Origin: an uncultured Chloroflexia bacterium
GTDB taxonomy: Bacteria; Chloroflexota; Dehalococcoidia; DSTF01; JALHUB01
Assembly: GCA_963703345.1 (NCBI GenBank)
Contig: OY969814.1
Span: 928,001 to 992,000, forward strand
DNA: 64,000 nt
Reading direction: 5' to 3'
Both the position numbers and the translations under genes were made by a program. Positions within the stretch are counted from its first letter, which is position 1. Each line of letters opens with the position of its first letter. A model generated the notes under the pieces. The model searched no databases. It was given only the letters and a program-made list of their open reading frames with translations, and had not been told where the DNA came from. This document shows, one piece after another, positions 5,582 through 39,054 of the stretch.

Positions 5582-6859
5582 ATGACGACTACGAACCTGA
5601 CACTGGACGAAATCACCAAGATCGAAGGGCATGCCGTCCTCGAGCTGAAGATCACGGACGGCAAGATCGAGGACTGCCACCTGAGGGACGTCGAGGGCAG
5701 CCGCTACTTCGAGGGGCTGCTCGTCGGCCGCCGCTACGACGAGGCGTACTGGATCTCCAGCCGCATATGAGGCATCTGTAGCTGCGGCCACGTTGTGGCT
5801 GCCGTAACCGCAATGGAGAGCGCGCTGGGCATCGAGCCCAGCCAACAGACGCACGACCTGCGCGTCCTTCTGACGATGGGCGAGCGCATTCGTAGCCATG
5901 CTGCCCACCTCTACTTCCTCGCCCTGCCGGACTACCTGGGCGCGCCCAACGCCGTCGCCATCGCGGCGGACAAGCCGGATGCGGTGAAAATGGCCGTCGC
6001 CCTTATGAAGGCCGGCAATGACATGGTGAGGGTAATCGGCGGACGCGACATGCACCCCGAGTCGGCGACAGTCGGCGGCTGGTTGCACTTCCCGTCGCAG
6101 GAACAGGTTGACGGCCTGCGGGCGCGGCTGGAAGAGCTCCGACCCGGCGCCGTCGCCACCGCTCAGCTATTCAACAGCCTGCCGTACCCGGACTTCCACC
6201 ACGGCGCCGAGCACTTCTCGCTGCACAACGACAAGGAGTACGTCTCCCTGCGGGGCACGATCAAGAGCGCGAATCACGAGTTCGAGCGCCGCGACTACCT
6301 GAAGTTCGTGCAGGAGTACCACGAGCCGGACATGACCGCCAACTTCGTGGTCCGCGAAGGCCACGCGTACATGGTCGGCGCGCTTCCGCGCATCAACAAT
6401 AACTTCGACCAGCTTTCGCCGGAAGCCAAGCAACTGGCGAAGGCCGGAAAGCTGATGGACAATCTGGACAACCCGTACTACAACAACGTCGCCCAGGCCG
6501 TGGAGCTCGTCGCCGCTGTGGACCAGGCGATCGAGATGCTGGGTAGGGTCAAGCCGCGCCCCGAGCCGCTGATGGAGATCAAACCGCACGCCTGCCGGGG
6601 CGTTGGGACCGTCGAGGTGCCGCGCGGCACGCTCTGGCACGAATACGAGCTGGACGATACCGGCCACGTGAAGCACGCCAACATCATCACGCCGACGGCC
6701 CAGAACCTGCGCAGCATCGAAGACGACATCCGCCAGTTCCTGCCGGCGATAGTGCACCTGTCGCGCGGGCAAATGGCGGACGCGCTGGAGAAGCTCATTC
6801 GCTCCTATGACCCCTGCCTCTCCTGCGCCGCTCACTTCCTGCGCATCGAAGACATCTAG
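5582..6859 (+). CDS. hydA: Group 3b [NiFe] hydrogenase large (alpha) subunit with in-frame UGA at codon 63 (probable selenocysteine)
   Basis: ORFs 5582..5770 and 5795..6859 share a frame. KIEGH, RYFEGLL, SSRI-TGA-GICSCGH (L1), EVPRGTLWH, IITPTAQN, RSYDPCLSCAAH followed by a cleavable tail (L2). Confidence 0.9.
5784..5802 (+). promoter_or_regulatory. Putative bacterial SECIS hairpin of hydA
   Basis: GCGGCCAC-GTT-GTGGCTGC forms an 8-bp stem (one G-U); loop G lies 22 nt after the TGA at 5768-5770. Confidence 0.7.
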
Positions 6860-22276: not shown

Positions 22277-23752
22277 TTGCGGATAAAGACCGGACTAGTC
22301 GTCCCGATTCTCGCGCTTCTTGCCCTCTTCCTTCCCGGCTGCATGTGGGGCGTCGTCCGCGACGCCGGTACTGGTGTCGGCATCGAGGGCGCGACGGTAT
22401 CGTACACCGATTCGCAAGGCAACACGGGCTCGACGACGAGCACGACCTTCGGCCTCTACCTCCTCAACGCTTCGACGGGCTTCCCGGTAATCGGGTCGTC
22501 GCAGTTCGACGTCAGCGCTCCCGGTTACTCGACGCTCACAACTACCCGATCCGTCCTCTACGACGACAACCCCAACGCCACGCTGGCCGACCTGTCGAGC
22601 TTCTGGGAAGTGCAGTCCTTCGATCTCAATGTGGGAAACGGGGCGGGAATCATCAATAGTCTCGCCAGCGGCCTTCATTTCCCGGTCGGCGCCGTATATG
22701 ACAGCCATGGCAACCTCTACTTCAGCGAACGCGACACTTGCAGCGTGCGCAGGATAGGCGCCAGCAGCGGCAGGATCACGACCGTCGCCGGCGACGGGAC
22801 CTGCGGCTTCTCCGGCGACGGCGGTCCCGCGACTGACGCCGAACTGGCCGACCCCAGCGGCCTCGCCATCGCGCCCAACGGCGATATCGCCATCGCCGAC
22901 ACCACCAACTGCCGTGTGCGTCGGGTCAACATGGCCACGGGCACTATTAGCACGGTCGCCGGCAACGGTACCTGCGGCTTCAGCGGCGACGGCGGCGACG
23001 TCACGCTCGCCCAGATCGCGCTTTCCGCTGCCGCCGTTCCCAGCTTGTTCGTCTGGTCGGACGTCGCCTTCGATTCCGGCGGCAACCTTTACATCGCCGA
23101 TATCTTCAACTGCCGCATCCGCGAAGTTGCGGGCGGCACGATCTCGACGATCGCCGGCTCGGGTGCCACGGGTTTCACTTGCGGCGCCTTCTCCGGCGAC
23201 GGCGGCCCGGCCACCAGCGCCCGCCTCGACCAGCCAAGCGGCGTCGCCGTCAACGCCGACGGCGACGTGTTCATCGGCGAGCTGGGCGGCTGCCGGGTGC
23301 GCAAGGTCTTGCATAATCGCGCCCACATGATTCAGACGATTGCCGGCGGCGCCATTTGCGCGTCGTCGGGTGACGGCGGTCCTGCAGCGGATGCCGGCCT
23401 CGCCAACGTCCGCGGCCTTGCCCTCGACGCTGCGGACAACGTCTACATCTCCCAATTCCGCTTCAACACCAGCGACCCAACGCAAATGCTCGACTGCGAA
23501 GTGCGCAAGATCGACGAGAATGACGGAAAAATCAGGCGTGTCGCGGGCAACGGCGCCTGCGGCGCCAGCGGCGATGGCGGCGCGGCGATAACGGCGCAGA
23601 TCAACGTGCCGGGCGACGTCGCGCTGGCCTGCAACGGCGACGTCGCCTTCACCGACGCGCTGGATGGCCGCGTCCGCGTGGTGAAGGACGTCAACGACGG
23701 TGGCCCGGCGCCTGACGCCGACGGCAACGGCACCGGCGACATCTGCGAATAG
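22277..23752 (+). CDS. Secreted NHL-repeat (teneurin-like) beta-propeller lipoprotein
   Basis: GAGGAGG RBS + TTG; LPGC lipobox; repeated GFSGDGGPAT..L..P.G and GNLYIAD; C-terminal DADGNGTGDIC. Confidence 0.85.
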   Translation: MRIKTGLVVPILALLALFLPGCMWGVVRDAGTGVGIEGATVSYTDSQGNTGSTTSTTFGLYLLNASTGFPVIGSSQFDVSAPGYSTLTTTRSVLYDDNPNATLADLSSFWEVQSFDLNVGNGAGIINSLASGLHFPVGAVYDSHGNLYFSERDTCSVRRIGASSGRITTVAGDGTCGFSGDGGPATDAELADPSGLAIAPNGDIAIADTTNCRVRRVNMATGTISTVAGNGTCGFSGDGGDVTLAQIALSAAAVPSLFVWSDVAFDSGGNLYIADIFNCRIREVAGGTISTIAGSGATGFTCGAFSGDGGPATSARLDQPSGVAVNADGDVFIGELGGCRVRKVLHNRAHMIQTIAGGAICASSGDGGPAADAGLANVRGLALDAADNVYISQFRFNTSDPTQMLDCEVRKIDENDGKIRRVAGNGACGASGDGGAAITAQINVPGDVALACNGDVAFTDALDGRVRVVKDVNDGGPAPDADGNGTGDICE

Positions 23753-23919
23753 GCTTTCCTTGTCCTGTCCCCCGACCCCTTTGCCTCCTTCGGGCTTCGA
23801 TGCTAAGATGAGCGCACGTCAGAGCGATTCGAGGACAAGCGTTGCCTCTATTGACTGCCTCCGACGACATGACAAACGTCGCTCTAACCCCGCAACGGAT
23901 AGGGAAGGGGGTGAAGCCA

Positions 23920-24024
23920 ATGACCTCATTGCGCGGCTTCACCTGAGTCTGCCCGGACGTGGCACAGGTTCTGCGCCCGTCATCGCTCACGCCGCACCCT
24001 GTCCGTAGGCCTCACTCCCGCTAA
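23920..24024 (+). CDS. Putative Sec-containing leader peptide MTSLRGFT-U-VCPDVAQVLRPSSLTPHPVRRPHSR (34 aa)
   Basis: Strong SD AAGGGGGTGA, ATG 23920, in-frame TGA 23944-23946, SECIS-like hairpin, TAA 24022-24024. Confidence 0.6.
23956..23981 (+). promoter_or_regulatory. Putative bacterial SECIS hairpin of the leader ORF
   Basis: GACG(T)GGC-A-CAG-GTT-CTG-C-GCC-CGTC: bulged U, one A.C mismatch, GUU loop at +22..+24 after TGA, the same geometry as in hydA. Confidence 0.65.
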
Positions 24025-24170
24025 CCTCCCGCTTCCCAGGGTCGGTCGAGCCACTTAGCGAGACAGCCTGCTCTCACTGGGTTGAGCGCTGCTGTCCAGC
24101 GCGGCACTGTCACGCTCCGGCAAGAACGCCATCCATCCGCTTCCAGCATTCGCTATTAAGGAGGATTATC

Positions 24171-25445
24171 GTGGTCGATTATCGAGAAATGTGGTCGGGT
24201 CTCGGCCTTAACCTGCAAAGGCACGATGAGCTGCTCGCCGGCCTCTCGGCCATGTACGGCGAGATGTTCCTCAGTCAGCGCGCGCGTCCCAAGGCCATGG
24301 ACTACTTCGACTTCGTCGTCAGTGAGATACACGGCCTGAGAGTGAAAGAGCTGGTGGACTATCGCGCGGCCGGCGGCAAGGTCGTCGGGCTCTACTGCGT
24401 GTTCGTCCCGGAGGATGTTGTGCTGGCCGCGAGCGCCGTGCCCATCGGCCTGTGCGCGGGTGCCCAATTCGCCGTCCCCGACGCGGAGGAAGTCCTGCCC
24501 CGCAACAGTTGCCCGCTCGTCAAGTCGTCCTTCGGCTTCAAAGTGAACCGGACCTGCCCTTACATCCAGGCCAGCGACTTCGTCGTCGGGGAGACGACCT
24601 GCGACGGCAAGAAGAAGATGTATGAGTTGCTTTCCGAGCTGCATCCCATGCACGTCATGGAGGTGCCGCAGAAGAAGACGGCGTTCGGCCGCGCGCTCTT
24701 CCTCGATGAGCTGAAGGCGTTCGTGCTTCGGCTGGAGGAAGAGACGGGCCGAAAGATCACCGCCGAGGGACTCGCGAAGGCTACGAGTGTCACCGAGGGC
24801 AAACGCCGCGCCCTGAAGCGCCTACAGGCCGTCCGAAAGGCCCGCCCGGCACCCATCAGCGGCCTCGACGCCCTGCTTATCACCCAGATCGCTTTCTACG
24901 ATGACAATGTTCGCTTCACCGAGAAGGTCAACGTCCTCTGCGACGAGCTGGAGGCCCGCGTCGCTGCGGGAGAGGGCGTGGCGCCGGCGAACGCGCCGCG
25001 CATCCTCGCGAGCGGCAGCCCGATGGCCGTGCCCAACTGGAAGCTCCACCACATCCTGGAGCAGAGCGGCGCCGTCGTCGTCGGCGAGGAGTCATGCACC
25101 GGAACGCGCTACTTCGATCGCCTGACGCCTTCCCACGACGGCACGCTCGACGGTCAGCTTGCGGCCATCGCGGACCGACAGCTCGACGTCCACTGCGCCT
25201 GCTTCACGCCCAACAGCGAGCGGCTGGATGACATCGTCAACCTGGCGCGCGGGTGGTCGGCCGACAGCGTGGTGCACTACGCGCTCCAGTTCTGCCACAC
25301 CTTCGCCAACGAAGCGGTGAAGGTGGAGCGGCGACTGGCGTCGGAAGGAATCCCGCTCCTGCGCATCGAGACCGACTACAGCGACGAGGATATCGGCCCG
25401 CTTCAGACGCGGGTGGACGCGTTCCTGGAGATGATCCGGAGGTGA
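24171..25445 (+). CDS. Double-cubane [8Fe-9S] cluster anaerobic reductase DCCP (2-hydroxyacyl-CoA dehydratase family)
   Basis: N-terminus YREMWSGLGLNLQRHDELL, MDYFDFVVSEIHGLRV, YCVFVPE, GLCAG, RNSCPLVKS, GETTCDGKKK, EESCTG, CACFTPN, FCH, IETDYS. Confidence 0.88.
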   Translation: MVDYREMWSGLGLNLQRHDELLAGLSAMYGEMFLSQRARPKAMDYFDFVVSEIHGLRVKELVDYRAAGGKVVGLYCVFVPEDVVLAASAVPIGLCAGAQFAVPDAEEVLPRNSCPLVKSSFGFKVNRTCPYIQASDFVVGETTCDGKKKMYELLSELHPMHVMEVPQKKTAFGRALFLDELKAFVLRLEEETGRKITAEGLAKATSVTEGKRRALKRLQAVRKARPAPISGLDALLITQIAFYDDNVRFTEKVNVLCDELEARVAAGEGVAPANAPRILASGSPMAVPNWKLHHILEQSGAVVVGEESCTGTRYFDRLTPSHDGTLDGQLAAIADRQLDVHCACFTPNSERLDDIVNLARGWSADSVVHYALQFCHTFANEAVKVERRLASEGIPLLRIETDYSDEDIGPLQTRVDAFLEMIRR

Positions 25446-26203
25446 CTTACGCAGGGCTGGACATCGGGTCGCGCACGATCGTCCTGACCGAGCTGACGGG
25501 CGGATCGGTACGCTCGCGCATCATCGACACGGGTCCCGACCCGTTGGAGCGCTGTCGCCGCCTGCTGGACGGCGCGAGCTATCGTCGCCTTGTCGCCACC
25601 GGCTACGGGCGTCATCTCGCAAAAGGGGTCCTCGCCGATTCCGCTGTCTCTGAGATCACCGCTTATGCCGTCGGCGCGCGTCACCTGTACGCCGACTGCC
25701 ATGCGGTGGTCGACGTCGGCGGCCAGGACTGCAAGGTCGCGCTCATGGCGAGCGACGGGACGGTGCAGAAATTCGAGATGAACGACCGCTGCGCCGCCGG
25801 CACGGGCCGCTTCCTTGAGGTGATGGCGCGGGCGCTGGACGTGGACATCGCTTCCCTCGGCGGGCTGGCGCTCGGAGCCACGACGAAGGTTGCGATAAGC
25901 AGCCTCTGCACCGTCTTCGCCGAGTCGGAAGTCGTCTCCCTCATCGCCCGTGGCGAGGACAGCGCCGCGATTGCCCTCGGGCTGCACGAGTCTATCGCCC
26001 AACGAATCGGCGGCATGTGCCGAAGGGTTGGGATAAGGGACCGAGTCATTTTCGCCGGCGGGGGCGCGCTGAACGTGTGCCTGCGGGAGCTGCTGGGACG
26101 CAGGCTCGGCGTCGAGCTGACCGTGCCGGACGAGCCGCAGGCGGTCGGAGCGCTGGGGGCGGCCCTAATCGCTAAGGCGCAGGACGGCCGGGAAGGCGGC
26201 TGA
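25442..26203 (+). CDS. ATP-dependent activator/reductase (DCCP-R, HgdC-type ASKHA ATPase)
   Basis: GLDIGS, ATGYGR, DVGGQDCK, MNDRCAAGTGRFLE, CTVFAESEV; GTG overlaps the DCCP stop. Confidence 0.92.
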   Translation: MTYAGLDIGSRTIVLTELTGGSVRSRIIDTGPDPLERCRRLLDGASYRRLVATGYGRHLAKGVLADSAVSEITAYAVGARHLYADCHAVVDVGGQDCKVALMASDGTVQKFEMNDRCAAGTGRFLEVMARALDVDIASLGGLALGATTKVAISSLCTVFAESEVVSLIARGEDSAAIALGLHESIAQRIGGMCRRVGIRDRVIFAGGGALNVCLRELLGRRLGVELTVPDEPQAVGALGAALIAKAQDGREGG

Positions 26204-26205
26204 AC

Positions 26206-26487
26206 TCAGGACCGGGCGACACCGGCCTCGGAGAGCAGGACTCGCGCCTTGTCCGTGAGCTGCCAGATGGTCGGGCCGGACGCTTCGTCGCAGGCTGGTG
26301 TGCGCATCGAGCAGCGGGCGCAGACGCTCGACGCCGCGCGGGAGGCGCAGCTCAGGTAGCCCTCGCTGCCGAGTCGCGCCAGCAGGTCGCCGACCAGCGG
26401 CGACGGGACGTTCAGTTCGCGTGCCAGCGTCTCGCTGGACCACGTCCGGTCGCCGTCGGCAAGGAGCGCGAGCAATCGCTTGAGCAT
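26206..26487 (-). CDS. feoC: FeoC-like winged-helix protein
   Basis: Follows feoB; HTH plus C...CxxC...C cluster motif. Confidence 0.7.
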   Translation of the reverse strand: MLKRLLALLADGDRTWSSETLARELNVPSPLVGDLLARLGSEGYLSCASRAASSVCARCSMRTPACDEASGPTIWQLTDKARVLLSEAGVARS

Positions 26488-26489
26488 CG

Positions 26490-28493
26490 TCAGACTCCCA
26501 GGCCGAAAAGGCGCGCCGTCTGGTAGATCGCTATCGCGACGCCGAACGACACGACGAGCATGTAGCCCACCGCGAAGCCCGTCCAACGCCAGCTTCGCGT
26601 CTCACGGTAGAGCGTCACGGTGGACGCGGCGCAAGGGATGAACAGCATCTGCAGGGCGATGAAGGCCAGCGCCGCGGCCGGCGTCATGATGCCGGTCAGC
26701 GAAGTGCGCAGCGCGGAGTCGCCGTTGGCGCCGAGGAGGACGCCGAAGGTGGCGATGGTCTGCTCCTTGGCGACGAAGCTGGTGAGCAGGGCGACCATCG
26801 CCCGCCAGTCCAGCCCCATCATGCCGCCGATCGGCGCCAACCCCCGCCCGATGTGGCCGAGGAAGCTCGCCTCGATGCCGCTGCCGGGGAAGGTGGCAAG
26901 CGCCCACACGACCAGCGACACGGCGAGGATGACGGTGCCGGTCAGCGTAACGAAATGGCGCAGCCGCGTCAGCGTCGTCAGTAGGACGGAGCGCAAGTCG
27001 GGGACGTGATAGCGTGGCAGCTCCATGACGAACGACGACTCGCGTCCTCGAAACAGGAGCCGGCTTATGAGCAGCGCGACAACAGCGAGCACCGCGAGAT
27101 TGACCATCACCATGCCCCAGGCGACGAACGCCGCCGCGCTGCCGAAGAAGGCCGCGGTGAACAGAGCGATCACAACCATGCGCGCCGAGCAGGGCACCAG
27201 CGGCGCGACGAGGATCGTCGTCAGGCGGGCGCTCGGCGATTCGACGATGCGACTGCCGGTGATGGCCGGCACGTTGCATCCCCAGCCCACGAACAGTGGC
27301 AGGAATGACTTGCCGCGCAGGCCGATGAGGTTCATGAACCGGTCCATGACGAACGCGGCCCGCGCCATGTAGCCGACGTCCTCCAGAATGGTCAAGGCGA
27401 AGAAGAGGAGCGCCAGGATAGGAAGAAAGGTGAGCACGGTGCCCACACCGCCGATGACGCCGTCGCTAAGAAGGCTCACGCTCCAGTGCGGCCAGCCAGC
27501 AAGGAGGCTTTGCACTCTCGTTGCGCTCCCGCCCACCAGTTTGTCGTCCAGGAAGCGCTGCATCGGCACTGCGACGCTGAACATCAGCCAGTAGACGCCG
27601 AAGACCACGCCGACGAACGCCAGCACACCGCCGAGCGGATGCATCAGCAGGTGGTCGGCGCGCTTTGCCCAGGACGGCTCGCCCTTCTCGCGGCGCACGG
27701 CCTGATGGTAGACGGCGGCGGCCCAATCATAGCGGGCGCCGGCAATCTCTATCGCCGCGCCGTCGCGATGCCGGAGCACGTCTTCTATACGAAGCCGGAC
27801 GTCGGCCGAGGTCTCGGCTTTGACCGCCTCCGCCAGCGCGCGGTCGCCTTCGAGGAGCTTGACGAGCAACCAGTCGCGCGGATAGGGCAGGCTGAGAGCA
27901 GCGGGAAGGGTCTGGTCGAGGGCGTCGAGAAGGCCTTCCGTGTCGGGCTCCAGCGGCGGGTGAGCGACGGCTGGCGACGCTCCCGCTTCCGCAACGCGCT
28001 CGACGGCTTCGATAAGTTCCGAGATGCCCTTCCCCTGCCTGGCGACCAGCGGGACAACCGGCACAGCCAGCACCGACTCCAGCCGCTCGACGTCGACGCT
28101 GAGGCCGGCCGCCTGCGCGACGTCCATCATATTCAGGGCGATGACGGTGGGAAGGCCCAGCTCCAGGAGCTCGCGGACAAGGTAGAGGTTGCGCTCCAGG
28201 CTCGCAGCGTCAACAACGGCAACCACGACGTCGGGTCTCTCCATCGCCAGGAAATCGCGCGCGGTCTTCTCTTCGACCGAGTTGGCGGACAGGCTGTAGC
28301 TGCCCGGCAGGTCGATGAGCGAAAAGACGGTTCCATTGCGCCGGTGGACGCCGGTCTTTTTCTCTACCGTCTTCCCCGGCCAGTTCCCCGTGTGCTGTCT
28401 GAGGCCTGTCAGGGCGTTGAAGACCGTGCTCTTGCCGGTGTTGGGCGCGCCAGCAAGCGCCACGGTCAGCGTAGAGACCGGCCTGGCGATCAT
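26490..28493 (-). CDS. feoB: Ferrous iron transporter FeoB
   Basis: GAPNTGKST, GNWPGKTVE, DLPGSYSL, NMMD, LEDVGYMARAAF, GCNVPA, PCSAR. Confidence 0.96.
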   Translation of the reverse strand: MIARPVSTLTVALAGAPNTGKSTVFNALTGLRQHTGNWPGKTVEKKTGVHRRNGTVFSLIDLPGSYSLSANSVEEKTARDFLAMERPDVVVAVVDAASLERNLYLVRELLELGLPTVIALNMMDVAQAAGLSVDVERLESVLAVPVVPLVARQGKGISELIEAVERVAEAGASPAVAHPPLEPDTEGLLDALDQTLPAALSLPYPRDWLLVKLLEGDRALAEAVKAETSADVRLRIEDVLRHRDGAAIEIAGARYDWAAAVYHQAVRREKGEPSWAKRADHLLMHPLGGVLAFVGVVFGVYWLMFSVAVPMQRFLDDKLVGGSATRVQSLLAGWPHWSVSLLSDGVIGGVGTVLTFLPILALLFFALTILEDVGYMARAAFVMDRFMNLIGLRGKSFLPLFVGWGCNVPAITGSRIVESPSARLTTILVAPLVPCSARMVVIALFTAAFFGSAAAFVAWGMVMVNLAVLAVVALLISRLLFRGRESSFVMELPRYHVPDLRSVLLTTLTRLRHFVTLTGTVILAVSLVVWALATFPGSGIEASFLGHIGRGLAPIGGMMGLDWRAMVALLTSFVAKEQTIATFGVLLGANGDSALRTSLTGIMTPAAALAFIALQMLFIPCAASTVTLYRETRSWRWTGFAVGYMLVVSFGVAIAIYQTARLFGLGV

Positions 28494-28744
28494 GTTCCCG
28501 ATTCCGATGCCGCTACTGTCAGCCGCATCGATTCGGCGCGACCAAGCGCCAGGCGCACGCCCCGGATCACAACGACCACGGGGCCGCGGCCGGCGTTCCG
28601 TTCCATCTCGATCCTGGTGCCCGGGATGCAGCCGAGCGCCAGACAACGCGCCGTGAACGTCCTTCCGCCCGAAAGACCGACGATCGTCCCCGTTTCGCCC
28701 GGCTTCAGCGATCCCACCGGCATTACGGTTTCAGCCGCTTTCAC
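28490..28744 (-). CDS. feoA: FeoA
   Basis: LKPGETGTI...RCLALGCIPGTRI...GPVVV...LALGR. Confidence 0.85.
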   Translation of the reverse strand: MKAAETVMPVGSLKPGETGTIVGLSGGRTFTARCLALGCIPGTRIEMERNAGRGPVVVVIRGVRLALGRAESMRLTVAASESGT

Positions 28745-29427
28745 TGTGTTGCTCCCAGGTTGGCCGTCGCGTCCGGCAGGCGTTCCACCATAACGCTTCC
28801 TGCCAGGTCGCTGGCCACTTCTTTCAGCTTGCCGTCGACGCGCACCCACACGGAGCCGTCCTCGGCGCTTACGCCTTCGACTTCGACGATGCGGTCGGGC
28901 CGCACGTCCAGGCGGGCGAGGCGTCGCAGGAACTCCGGCGTCTCGTCGTAGATGCGTACGATGCGCGCCGTCCCCGCCGGCTCGAAGCGGCTGAGCGGTA
29001 GGATCTGCGTCGAACTAACATCGTGCTTGCGGCCGGGTATCGCGTGGCCATGCGGGCAGGACGCCAGGTCGCCCAGGAAGTCGACGAGACGTTCCTCAAG
29101 CGCCGGTGACGTGGCGTGCTCCAGCCGGCCCGCTTCGTCGTGAACTTCATCCCAGGAAAAGCCGAGGAAGCGGACGAGGAAGCTCTCCCACAGGCGATGC
29201 CGCCGGATGAGCGAGTTGGCGAGCCGCTGCCCTTCGGGCGTGAGCCGGACCGGACGGCGCGGCACGTGCTCGATCAGTCCTCTGGCGGAGAGCCGTTGCA
29301 GCATCTGCGTTATCGACGGCATGGAGAGGCCAAGCCGCGCCGCCAGGTAGGAGGTGGTGACCTCATCGCCGTGCTCGGCGGCCAGGCCGATTATCTTGAG
29401 GTATTCCTCTGGTCGTTCTTCAATCAT
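28741..29427 (-). CDS. DtxR/IdeR/MntR metal-dependent repressor with FeoA-like domain
   Basis: EEYLK, RRHRLWESFL, HDEAGRLEH, CPHGHAIP. Confidence 0.93.
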   Translation of the reverse strand: MIEERPEEYLKIIGLAAEHGDEVTTSYLAARLGLSMPSITQMLQRLSARGLIEHVPRRPVRLTPEGQRLANSLIRRHRLWESFLVRFLGFSWDEVHDEAGRLEHATSPALEERLVDFLGDLASCPHGHAIPGRKHDVSSTQILPLSRFEPAGTARIVRIYDETPEFLRRLARLDVRPDRIVEVEGVSAEDGSVWVRVDGKLKEVASDLAGSVMVERLPDATANLGATQ

Positions 29428-38016: not shown

Positions 38017-38352
38017 ACCACCTCCAGCGTGATTCTGGCATGCGAAAGGTCAACGCCGCCTAAACAAAGGTCGCGCTGCGCTCAAAATCGACTCAATATG
38101 GAGGGCTGTGATCGGGCGGCACGACCGGCTGGCCGCGTAGTCTGGCTGCCGCCTGTGCTTGACCCGCCAGCGGCCATTACGTAAAGTGGAGTCACTCCAA
38201 GGATAGGACGATCAGGAAACCGTTTCTTGTGTTGACGCGCGCCTAAGGTAAGAGCAGGGCTCGTCGAACGGAGCGTCATCTTGCGAGCAGGCCGATTCTC
38301 GACGAAGGGAAGTAGCTCAGGCCAGACAGCCAACGCAAGACTATGCTCGCTG

Positions 38353-39054
38353 ATGAGTATAATCATCGCGATTGCGGTGGTCGCCATTGGCTGCGGTTCA
38401 TCGTCGAATGGCGCGCCCGCGACTCAAGCCCCTGTGACGACGGCGCCGACTGCCCCGGTAACTCCTAAGCCCGTCACGATCGCCGTCGGCGACAACCCCT
38501 CCAGGGGACCGGTTGACGCGAAGGTCACAATCGTCGAGTTCGCAGACTTCCAAGGTCCACATTGTGCGGGCTTCGCTTTGCAGACCCTGCCGCAGATACT
38601 GGCGAATTACGGTGACAAAGTCCGGTTCGTATTCCTGAACGATATTCTGGGGGGCAGCACATATTCCGAAAAGGCCGCGGAAGCCGGCGAATGCGCCAAG
38701 GCACAAGGGGCTTTCTGGCAATACCACGACTTGCTGTTCCAAAACCAGCAGACGCTTACTGGACTGACTACACCCGGTCCGACACCGGGAATCAGCAACG
38801 TGGTCGACAGCTTGAAGGGCTACGCGGGCCAGCTAGGTCTGGACACTGCCAAGTTCAACGAATGCGTTGACTCAGGACAGATGGCAGCCGCCTTGCTGGC
38901 GGATAGGCAGCTCGCAGACAAGGCCGTCCAAGATGCGGGCTTGAACTCGTTTCCGCTGCCGTCCTTCTTCATAAACGGCAACTACCTCAGCGGAGCCAAG
39001 CCGTATGACGTCTTCAGGCAACTGATTGACTCGGCCTTGGCGGCAGCTCAGTAG
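38353..39054 (+). CDS. DsbA/thioredoxin-fold (BdbD-like) lipoprotein with GxxC instead of CxxC
   Basis: AKVTIVEFADFQGPHC, AAEAGECA, FWQYHDLLF, PSFFING; start approximate. Confidence 0.8.
   Translation: MSIIIAIAVVAIGCGSSSNGAPATQAPVTTAPTAPVTPKPVTIAVGDNPSRGPVDAKVTIVEFADFQGPHCAGFALQTLPQILANYGDKVRFVFLNDILGGSTYSEKAAEAGECAKAQGAFWQYHDLLFQNQQTLTGLTTPGPTPGISNVVDSLKGYAGQLGLDTAKFNECVDSGQMAAALLADRQLADKAVQDAGLNSFPLPSFFINGNYLSGAKPYDVFRQLIDSALAAAQ

Follow-up and report, generated by a model that had tools for sequence, protein, structure and literature searches.

In a 64,000-nucleotide (nt) stretch of contig OY969814.1 from an uncultured Chloroflexia bacterium (the window; its genome is G000 below), a short leader open reading frame (ORF) with an in-frame UGA precedes the operon of the double-cubane cluster protein (DCCP) and its ATP-dependent activase. 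From comparative sequence analysis we judge this leader to be a real, conserved element that is likely translated and likely acts as a selenium sensor, as the ribosome would pass the UGA only with charged selenocysteine (Sec) tRNA delivered by SelB. We put the probability that the leader is a read-through sensor inducing the operon on selenium shortage at about 0.72. The landmarks named in a first-pass annotation of this DNA are all present in the sequence: a Shine-Dalgarno (SD)-like sequence (AAGGGGGTGA, 23905-23914), an ATG at 23920, a TGA as codon 9 in a T-U-V-C context (23944-23946), a TAA at 24022-24024, and a hairpin with a bulged U and a GUU loop at +22 to +24, matching in loop and spacing the one that follows the UGA of the hydrogenase gene hydA (window 5768-5770, GUU loop at +22). 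With the UGA decoded, the product has 34 amino acids. The claim that a Sec-codon leader controls DCCP is well supported by comparison with relatives (18 of 25 genomes, covariation, reading frame), while in the window itself there is no U-tract terminator and no SD switch is predicted.

Conservation of the leader before DCCP and yedE

A single genome would not set such a motif apart from chance, since a loose hairpin filter lets through 9 of the 73 SD-ATG-short-TGA sites of G000. The element is judged real because it is conserved in relatives. The form sought upstream of the gene was an SD, a start, 4-10 codons, a UGA and a hairpin with a G-triloop. Among 25 genomes with a true DCCP, gathered by searches of relatives, class and phylum, this leader stands 5' of DCCP in 18, belonging to 10 genera, and selA scored over its cut-off in all 18; in favour of the link to Sec use, the two DCCP genomes that gave no selA match lack the leader. 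The first-pass annotation had suggested such a survey of upstream regions, and SD, ATG, UGA and hairpin are indeed conserved there. A detector was run on 106 DCCP loci, 80 of them from other phyla. Of the 68 upstream mini-ORFs in sense orientation that end in TGA, 31 were followed by the hairpin; they come from 28 loci, and some were entered for two starts. The controls gave 2/19 for TAA and 0/18 for TAG in the same position, and 5/39, 2/29 and 2/28 for TGA in the other three regions. Two duplicates (L006, L039), a locus without upstream DNA (L043) and non-DCCP paralogues had been excluded beforehand. Ten of 80 named DCCP loci pass the detector, seven of which resemble leaders and three (L048, L110, L114) chance, and a covariance model built from 16 DCCP leaders found leaders outside its training set with E-values from 1e-4 to 1e-2.

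What is conserved centres on an in-frame UGA. A test that ignored frame and stop codon, made after removal of one further duplicate, gave 24 matches, all with TGA and none with TAA or TAG, and 22 of them were in frame with an upstream start. In the hairpin stem, 95.5% of cells are paired and four of seven pairs show compensatory, two-sided changes (slid controls, 30-63%). In an alignment of 16 leaders, selected for UGA, the SD columns are invariant or nearly so. The residue immediately 5' of the UGA is Thr in 29 of 33 leaders, often as Arg-Arg-Thr, and the use of all four Thr codons suggests that translation is under selection. A tandem UGA-x-UGA occurs in four leaders, and the Cys codon of the window's leader aligns with the second UGA.

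The same kind of leader occurs before yedE, which encodes a putative selenium transporter. Applied unaltered to 30 loci out of 35 yedE matches, the detector was positive at 10, the loop lying at +21 or +22 each time; its TGA matches comprised 15 of 26 in the upstream sense region and 0 of 20 in three control regions. Leaders found by the covariance model at L142 and L149 also lie directly 5' of yedE. In eight of the ten yedE leaders the read-through frame passes the yedE SD and start in +1; the overlap leaders have four spacer lengths that all differ by multiples of 3, and a +1 overlap with the next SD and start recurs in L027 and in the DCCP leader L038. At L144 and L150 an apparently broken yedE start follows the leader, and at L150 an intact yedE lies ~340 nt further on. 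A search of G000 did not find yedE. The yedE leaders go beyond the first-pass annotation, as do the selD-like hairpin and the switching pairings described below.

Leader anatomy and Sec machinery in the window

The hairpin agrees with the consensus for bacterial selenocysteine insertion sequence (SECIS) elements, which describes an apical loop of 3-9 nt with G among its first two positions, an upper stem of 4-16 bp, a distance of 16-37 nt from the UGA, a minimum free energy of <= -7.5 kcal/mol and a genome with selA, selB, selD and selC (PMC13188914). All features that could be computed fall within these limits: the 3-nt GUU loop lies 21 nt past the UGA, the stem has 10 pairs interrupted by a single bulge and a single mismatch, and the energy is -12.4 kcal/mol. 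Its z-score is -2.5 when the hairpin is excised exactly, and that of the 52-nt stretch starting at the UGA is 0.19, not better than shuffles. Rfam covariance models run against 23600-24400 returned a single chance match (E 0.81).

The genome check proposed in the first pass turned out in favour of Sec use: G000 encodes selA, selB, a selD with its own in-frame TGA, and tRNA-Sec. A loose motif scan of the genome gave hundreds of chance matches, of which the sole useful one was selD, and composition-based listing of its selenoproteins was too strict in one version (3 matches) and too noisy in another (184). Neither the detector nor the covariance model found a second leader in G000. Two further genes drew our attention, a small CxxU gene with a read-through frame of ~80 amino acids that likely encodes a SelW/Rdx-type selenoprotein (contig C1, 1597550, minus strand) and a thioredoxin-like protein (window 38281-39054, plus strand), which resembles the Rcas_1661 (seleno)lipoprotein family at a score under the cut-off. 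The UGA of hydA replaces the first Cys codon of an N-terminal CxxC in a sulfhydrogenase-like [NiFe]-hydrogenase large subunit (window 5582-6859, plus strand), the C-terminal motif of which has Cys. Known NiFeSe hydrogenases carry Sec in the C-terminal motif.

Table 1. Features of the leader and the DCCP operon in the window.
Feature	Position	Strand	Comment
Possible sigma-70-type promoter, weak	23781..23809	+	-35 box, 17 nt, TG-extended -10 box
Segment 1	23895..23914	+	Leader SD plus preceding 10 nt; able to pair with 23997-24006
SD/AUG-burying hairpin	23909..23943	+	Predicted for ribosome-free RNA; SD and AUG pair with codons 6-8
Leader ORF	23920..24024	+	8 codons, UGA, 25 codons, TAA
Candidate Sec codon, in-frame UGA	23944..23946	+	Invariant in 16/16 aligned leaders
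SECIS-type hairpin	23956..23981	+	GUU loop 23968-23970; bulged U, one A-C mismatch
Segment 2	23985..24001	+	Predicted to pair with segment 1 or, alternatively, segment 3
C-rich, G-poor stretch	24002..24036	+	Includes leader stop; possible Rho loading site
Segment 3	24037..24051	+	Sequence shared unchanged by three members of the genus; 3' strand of the 2:3 helix (-18.8 to -20.6 kcal/mol)
DCCP gene with SD	24158..25445	+	GTG start at 24171
ATP-dependent activase, DCCP-R type	25442..26203	+	TIGR00241, 210 bits (cut-off 125)

The possible promoter has 8 of 12 consensus matches by eye and lies under the threshold of our scan, which returned zero promoters; boxes are placed alike in L007 and L008, two loci of the same genus. 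Between it and the leader SD, ~90 nt (23810-23900) are partially conserved within the genus.

Predicted switching and its polarity

Alternative pairings suggest how reading of the UGA could be passed on to the operon. In 15 of 16 leaders the start region and segment 2 form a duplex that exceeds shuffles at p<0.05, in two registers, and RNAalifold on nine window-type leaders recovered the hairpin together with an SD:anti-SD pairing, though not the AUG helix. The window's own SD is predicted to be buried by a different hairpin (-15.6 kcal/mol, z -3.8 for the exact stretch), which folds of L007 and L008 predict too. The helix between segments 2 and 3, kept in three genomes of the genus, encloses the C-rich stretch and the leader stop and reaches a probability of 0.68-0.92 in these three members with a ribosome at the UGA; in free RNA, pairing of segments 1 and 2 is predicted to replace it in the window, not clearly so in L007 and L008. 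In 11 relatives DCCP is preceded by a U-tract terminator. When their transcripts were truncated just past the left arm of this terminator and a ribosome was placed at the UGA in the model, 7 of them paired the arm with segment 2 to a fraction of 0.45 or more.

We propose that at low Sec-tRNA the ribosome would wait or terminate at the UGA and occupy segment 1, segments 2 and 3 would pair, and the operon would be expressed. With ample Sec-tRNA it would continue through segment 2. In relatives, read-through would then release the intrinsic terminator or carry ribosomes in the wrong frame over the start of the next gene, and both architectures predict an operon that is OFF with selenium and ON without it. 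This polarity is consistent with the induction of yedE mRNA by 5.3 log2 under selenium starvation in Methanococcus maripaludis (PMC11097638). In the window, the opened 2:3 helix may lead to Rho-dependent termination at the C-rich stretch, where C/G is 14/6 and then 17/4 in the first two 30-nt bins 3' of the hairpin; G000 has a rho gene. Of the possible outputs this appears the likeliest, though at about even odds and with low certainty. The peptide after the UGA is probably irrelevant, and Thr or Arg-Arg-Thr before it may tune pausing or release. The weakest step is the last, in which DCCP would serve selenium acquisition; it might, for example, reduce a selenium compound of low availability and so supply SelD.

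A number of observations weigh against this interpretation. Five of the seven DCCP genomes without a leader have selA (the other two, draft genomes, gave no selA match), and of the 18 leader-bearing genomes seven belong to one genus and three to another. The test on 106 DCCP loci is partly circular, because the detector was built on DCCP leaders, and UGA is the ordinary stop of 314 of 746 long frames in G000. The window holds the sole leader whose duplex between start region and segment 2 is not significant (p 0.114). Among the 11 relatives with a terminator, the duplex of segment 2 with the left arm exceeds shuffles (p<0.05) in just four, and equilibrium folds with the whole terminator switch in two (L030, L044), in a test that selected the wrong hairpin for L032 and L037. 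In the window the plus strand has no U-tract terminator of the trp type; nor is an SD switch of the ermC burial-and-release type predicted in the window's genus (L040, L007, L008), since the energy needed to open the DCCP start stays nearly constant across states (7.9-10.1, 12.0-12.5 and 4.3-4.4 kcal/mol, respectively). In L007 and L008 the 2:3 helix is predicted even without a ribosome. Lastly, the DCCP start of L009 opens more easily after read-through (6.7 to 3.9 kcal/mol), a hint of the opposite polarity.

Alternative explanations

The hairpin could act as a SelB operator without any read-through, with SelB-GTP-Sec-tRNA blocking or refolding the mRNA and the mini-ORF serving only to clear the RNA or place the hairpin. 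A SECIS-like element 5' of selAB in Escherichia coli provides a precedent (bioRxiv 10.64898/2026.03.03.709296), and in the eight yedE overlap leaders the hairpin ends ~21-33 nt before the SD. We nevertheless consider an operator unlikely, as 176 nt separate the end of the window hairpin from the DCCP SD and a plain operator needs no in-frame UGA at SECIS distance, no strong SD and no synonymous Thr codons.

The sign at this leader of the window might also be reversed: read-through would open either segment 2 or an anti-SD, and DCCP, which would need or detoxify selenium, would be ON when selenium is high. In one fold, a CCUCC just past the stop codon of the leader base-pairs with the SD of DCCP, the behaviour of the L009 start fits, and a selenium-containing cofactor was raised as a formal possibility by Haft and Gwadz (bioRxiv 10.1101/2022.07.06.499078). 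Predicted folds of L007 and L008 lack the CCUCC:SD pairing, however, the terminator and overlap architectures of relatives imply OFF at high selenium, and the leader of L081 stands 5' of two Cys-type MvhD-like genes. Reversal has a low probability in our estimation.

The first-pass annotation had offered a small selenoprotein, a partner of DCCP through U-x-C, as an alternative, which the comparison makes very improbable. Within the window's genus T-U-V-C-P-D-V-A-Q-V-L-R-P-S-S is invariant, but the DNA identity extends to third positions, as expected under RNA constraint. The UxC Cys is confined to this genus, the length after the UGA ranges from ~20 codons to >80 or runs into the next gene, and the residue frame over the hairpin shifts among relatives; with Cys and post-UGA peptide unconserved, a selenoprotein partner is hard to sustain. 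Leader peptides had no match in Pfam (window peptide only) or NCBIfam (five leaders).

Similarity to selD raises the possibility of a functionless, decayed selD 5' end left before DCCP. The hairpins of five window-type leaders share 17-20 of 27 nt with that of selD (hydA, 11/27), the leaders of L009 and L010 have its exact +34 spacing (34/54 nt identity in L009, counted from the UGA), and selD lies directly 5' of DCCP in 2 of 60 scanned neighbours (out of 101 neighbouring ORFs). Such a remnant is scarcely compatible with covariation, a fixed UGA, in-frame indels and long-range pairings kept across 10 genera, with an intact selD elsewhere in G000, or with the stems of yedE-type and other leaders, which are unrelated to the selD-like stem. 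The resemblance instead suggests that the window-type leader arose by capture of a selD 5' end or converged on a preference of SelB; selD may thus be the origin of this subfamily, and not a dead remnant. The 5' ends of selD that share the hairpin sequence are those of L004 (G000 contig C1, ~800050-800130, minus strand), L159, L145 and L146, and in relatives they share the SD as well.

Leader variants and the DCCP neighbourhood

Several loci depart from the window's arrangement. At L081 (2570-3913) a Thermodesulfobacteriota leader precedes two tandem MvhD/VhuD-like genes without UGA, possibly selenium-free back-up subunits, followed by DCCP. A separate leader type, with a GTG start, 12 codons, K/R-S-UGA and a loop at +24, occurs in Desulfobacterota-related genomes (L057 2303, L060 1774, L059 3647); in L057 and L060, genes for a membrane protein and a rhodanese lie 5' of DCCP. 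L038 (914-1360) has a tandem pair of leaders with a U-tract terminator between them 5' of DCCP, and yedE 3' of it. Second copies were seen twice, as a near-identical leader at a contig end in G007, 3' of the NHL-repeat gene that also precedes the leader in the window (L156 2560-2688; a duplication or a mixed assembly), and as a degraded hairpin plus segment 2 without SD or start, 5' of an unrelated gene, in G172 (L157 ~1705-1790). At L028 (3033-3125, minus strand) a 93-nt tRNA lies just 5' of DCCP; it was assigned as Cys(GCA), has a length like that of tRNA-Sec and resembles the selC* type of tRNA-Cys. Leaderless DCCP genes can be accompanied by a divergent selenium-associated LysR gene (NF040786), over the cut-off in L022 (143-1057, minus strand) and just under it in L041 (253-1131, minus strand), a potential alternative regulator.

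The identity of the window's DCCP is clear, with 473.7 bits against NF040772 (cut-off 350) and an E-value of 1e-147 against PDB 7yyl/6eno. It matches the protein of Carboxydothermus hydrogenoformans over the full length, its C76, 95, 114, 144, 309, 342 and 375 align with the seven Cys of the solved protein, and both have an adjacent activase. No difference was found at the protein level, and the leader is the new part; the published Cys-spacing pattern as printed has no literal match in the window's DCCP. The activase starts at GTG 25442, not 25253, and overlaps the DCCP stop. Convergent with the operon lies a cluster of a DtxR/MntR-like regulator, feoB and a small Cys-rich helix-turn-helix gene (26206-29427, minus strand), which is not next to DCCP in the relatives inspected.

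A link between DCCP and selenium, likewise put forward in the first pass, is consistent with these data and is not new: 955 of 970 strong NF040772 matches fall in SelD-containing assemblies (Haft and Gwadz, bioRxiv 10.1101/2022.07.06.499078), and co-occurrence also ties the two in PMC5322559. The physiological substrate of DCCP has been stated to be unknown (PMC7317905).

Implications

Selenium sensing in prokaryotes is largely open, e.g. the signal of the archaeal regulator HrsM is stated as unknown in PMC11097638, and a Sec-codon leader, if true, would be a direct sensing mechanism. It would give direction to the co-occurrence of DCCP and SelD, with DCCP induced by selenium shortage and acting on a selenium compound. 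Annotation overlooks such leaders because UGA is taken as a stop, and the leader offers a sequence tag for mapping selenium-starvation regulons; it could also serve as a genetically encoded selenium reporter. In a broader version, which we hold to be an even bet, SD-AUG-UGA-SECIS leaders would be a general selenium sensor of anaerobic bacteria that reads the supply of Sec-tRNA/SelB and acts through terminators, overlapping frames or Rho. The regulon would include yedE, yedF, DCCP-activase and Cys-type back-up subunits, with DCCP as a starvation-induced selenium scavenger and one leader subfamily derived by capture of a selD 5' end.

Comparison with known regulatory systems

In attenuators of the trpL, hisL and pheL type, a leader peptide controls the transcription of an amino-acid operon. 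The leader described here shares with them a short ORF, a putative sensing codon that is sometimes tandem, predicted induction on shortage and, in relatives, predicted alternative 1:2, 2:3 and terminator helices. It differs in that the sensing codon would be a recoded stop requiring SECIS and SelB, so that termination would be the default, and in that one sensor seems to serve several outputs (terminator, overlap, perhaps Rho), the window being without an intrinsic terminator. In the selAB element of E. coli, SelB-GTP-Sec-tRNA likewise reads a leader hairpin and represses when Sec-tRNA is available; only 3 nt lie between that hairpin and the SD, and no leader ORF is described (bioRxiv 10.64898/2026.03.03.709296), whereas the window hairpin follows an SD-AUG-UGA frame and is not next to the SD of the DCCP gene.

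With the SECIS elements of bacterial selenoprotein genes the hairpin has a G-first triloop, stem, spacing and energy in common, its loop and spacing being those of hydA and its stem sequence close to that of selD, but it serves an unconserved peptide in a 5' leader and not an enzyme. LysR_Se and HrsM also exert selenium-dependent control of selenium genes; they are DNA-binding proteins with an unknown effector (PMC5322559, PMC11097638), as opposed to an RNA read by the ribosome, and a different control of selB has been proposed in PMC8124441. In the text of Haft and Gwadz (bioRxiv 10.1101/2022.07.06.499078) the strings 'leader' and 'regulat' occur 0 times, and no description of a Sec-codon leader was found in the literature searched, with subscription journals and bioRxiv supplements outside its coverage. 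Control by a leader peptide in which a recoded stop codon would act as the sensor appears to be new.

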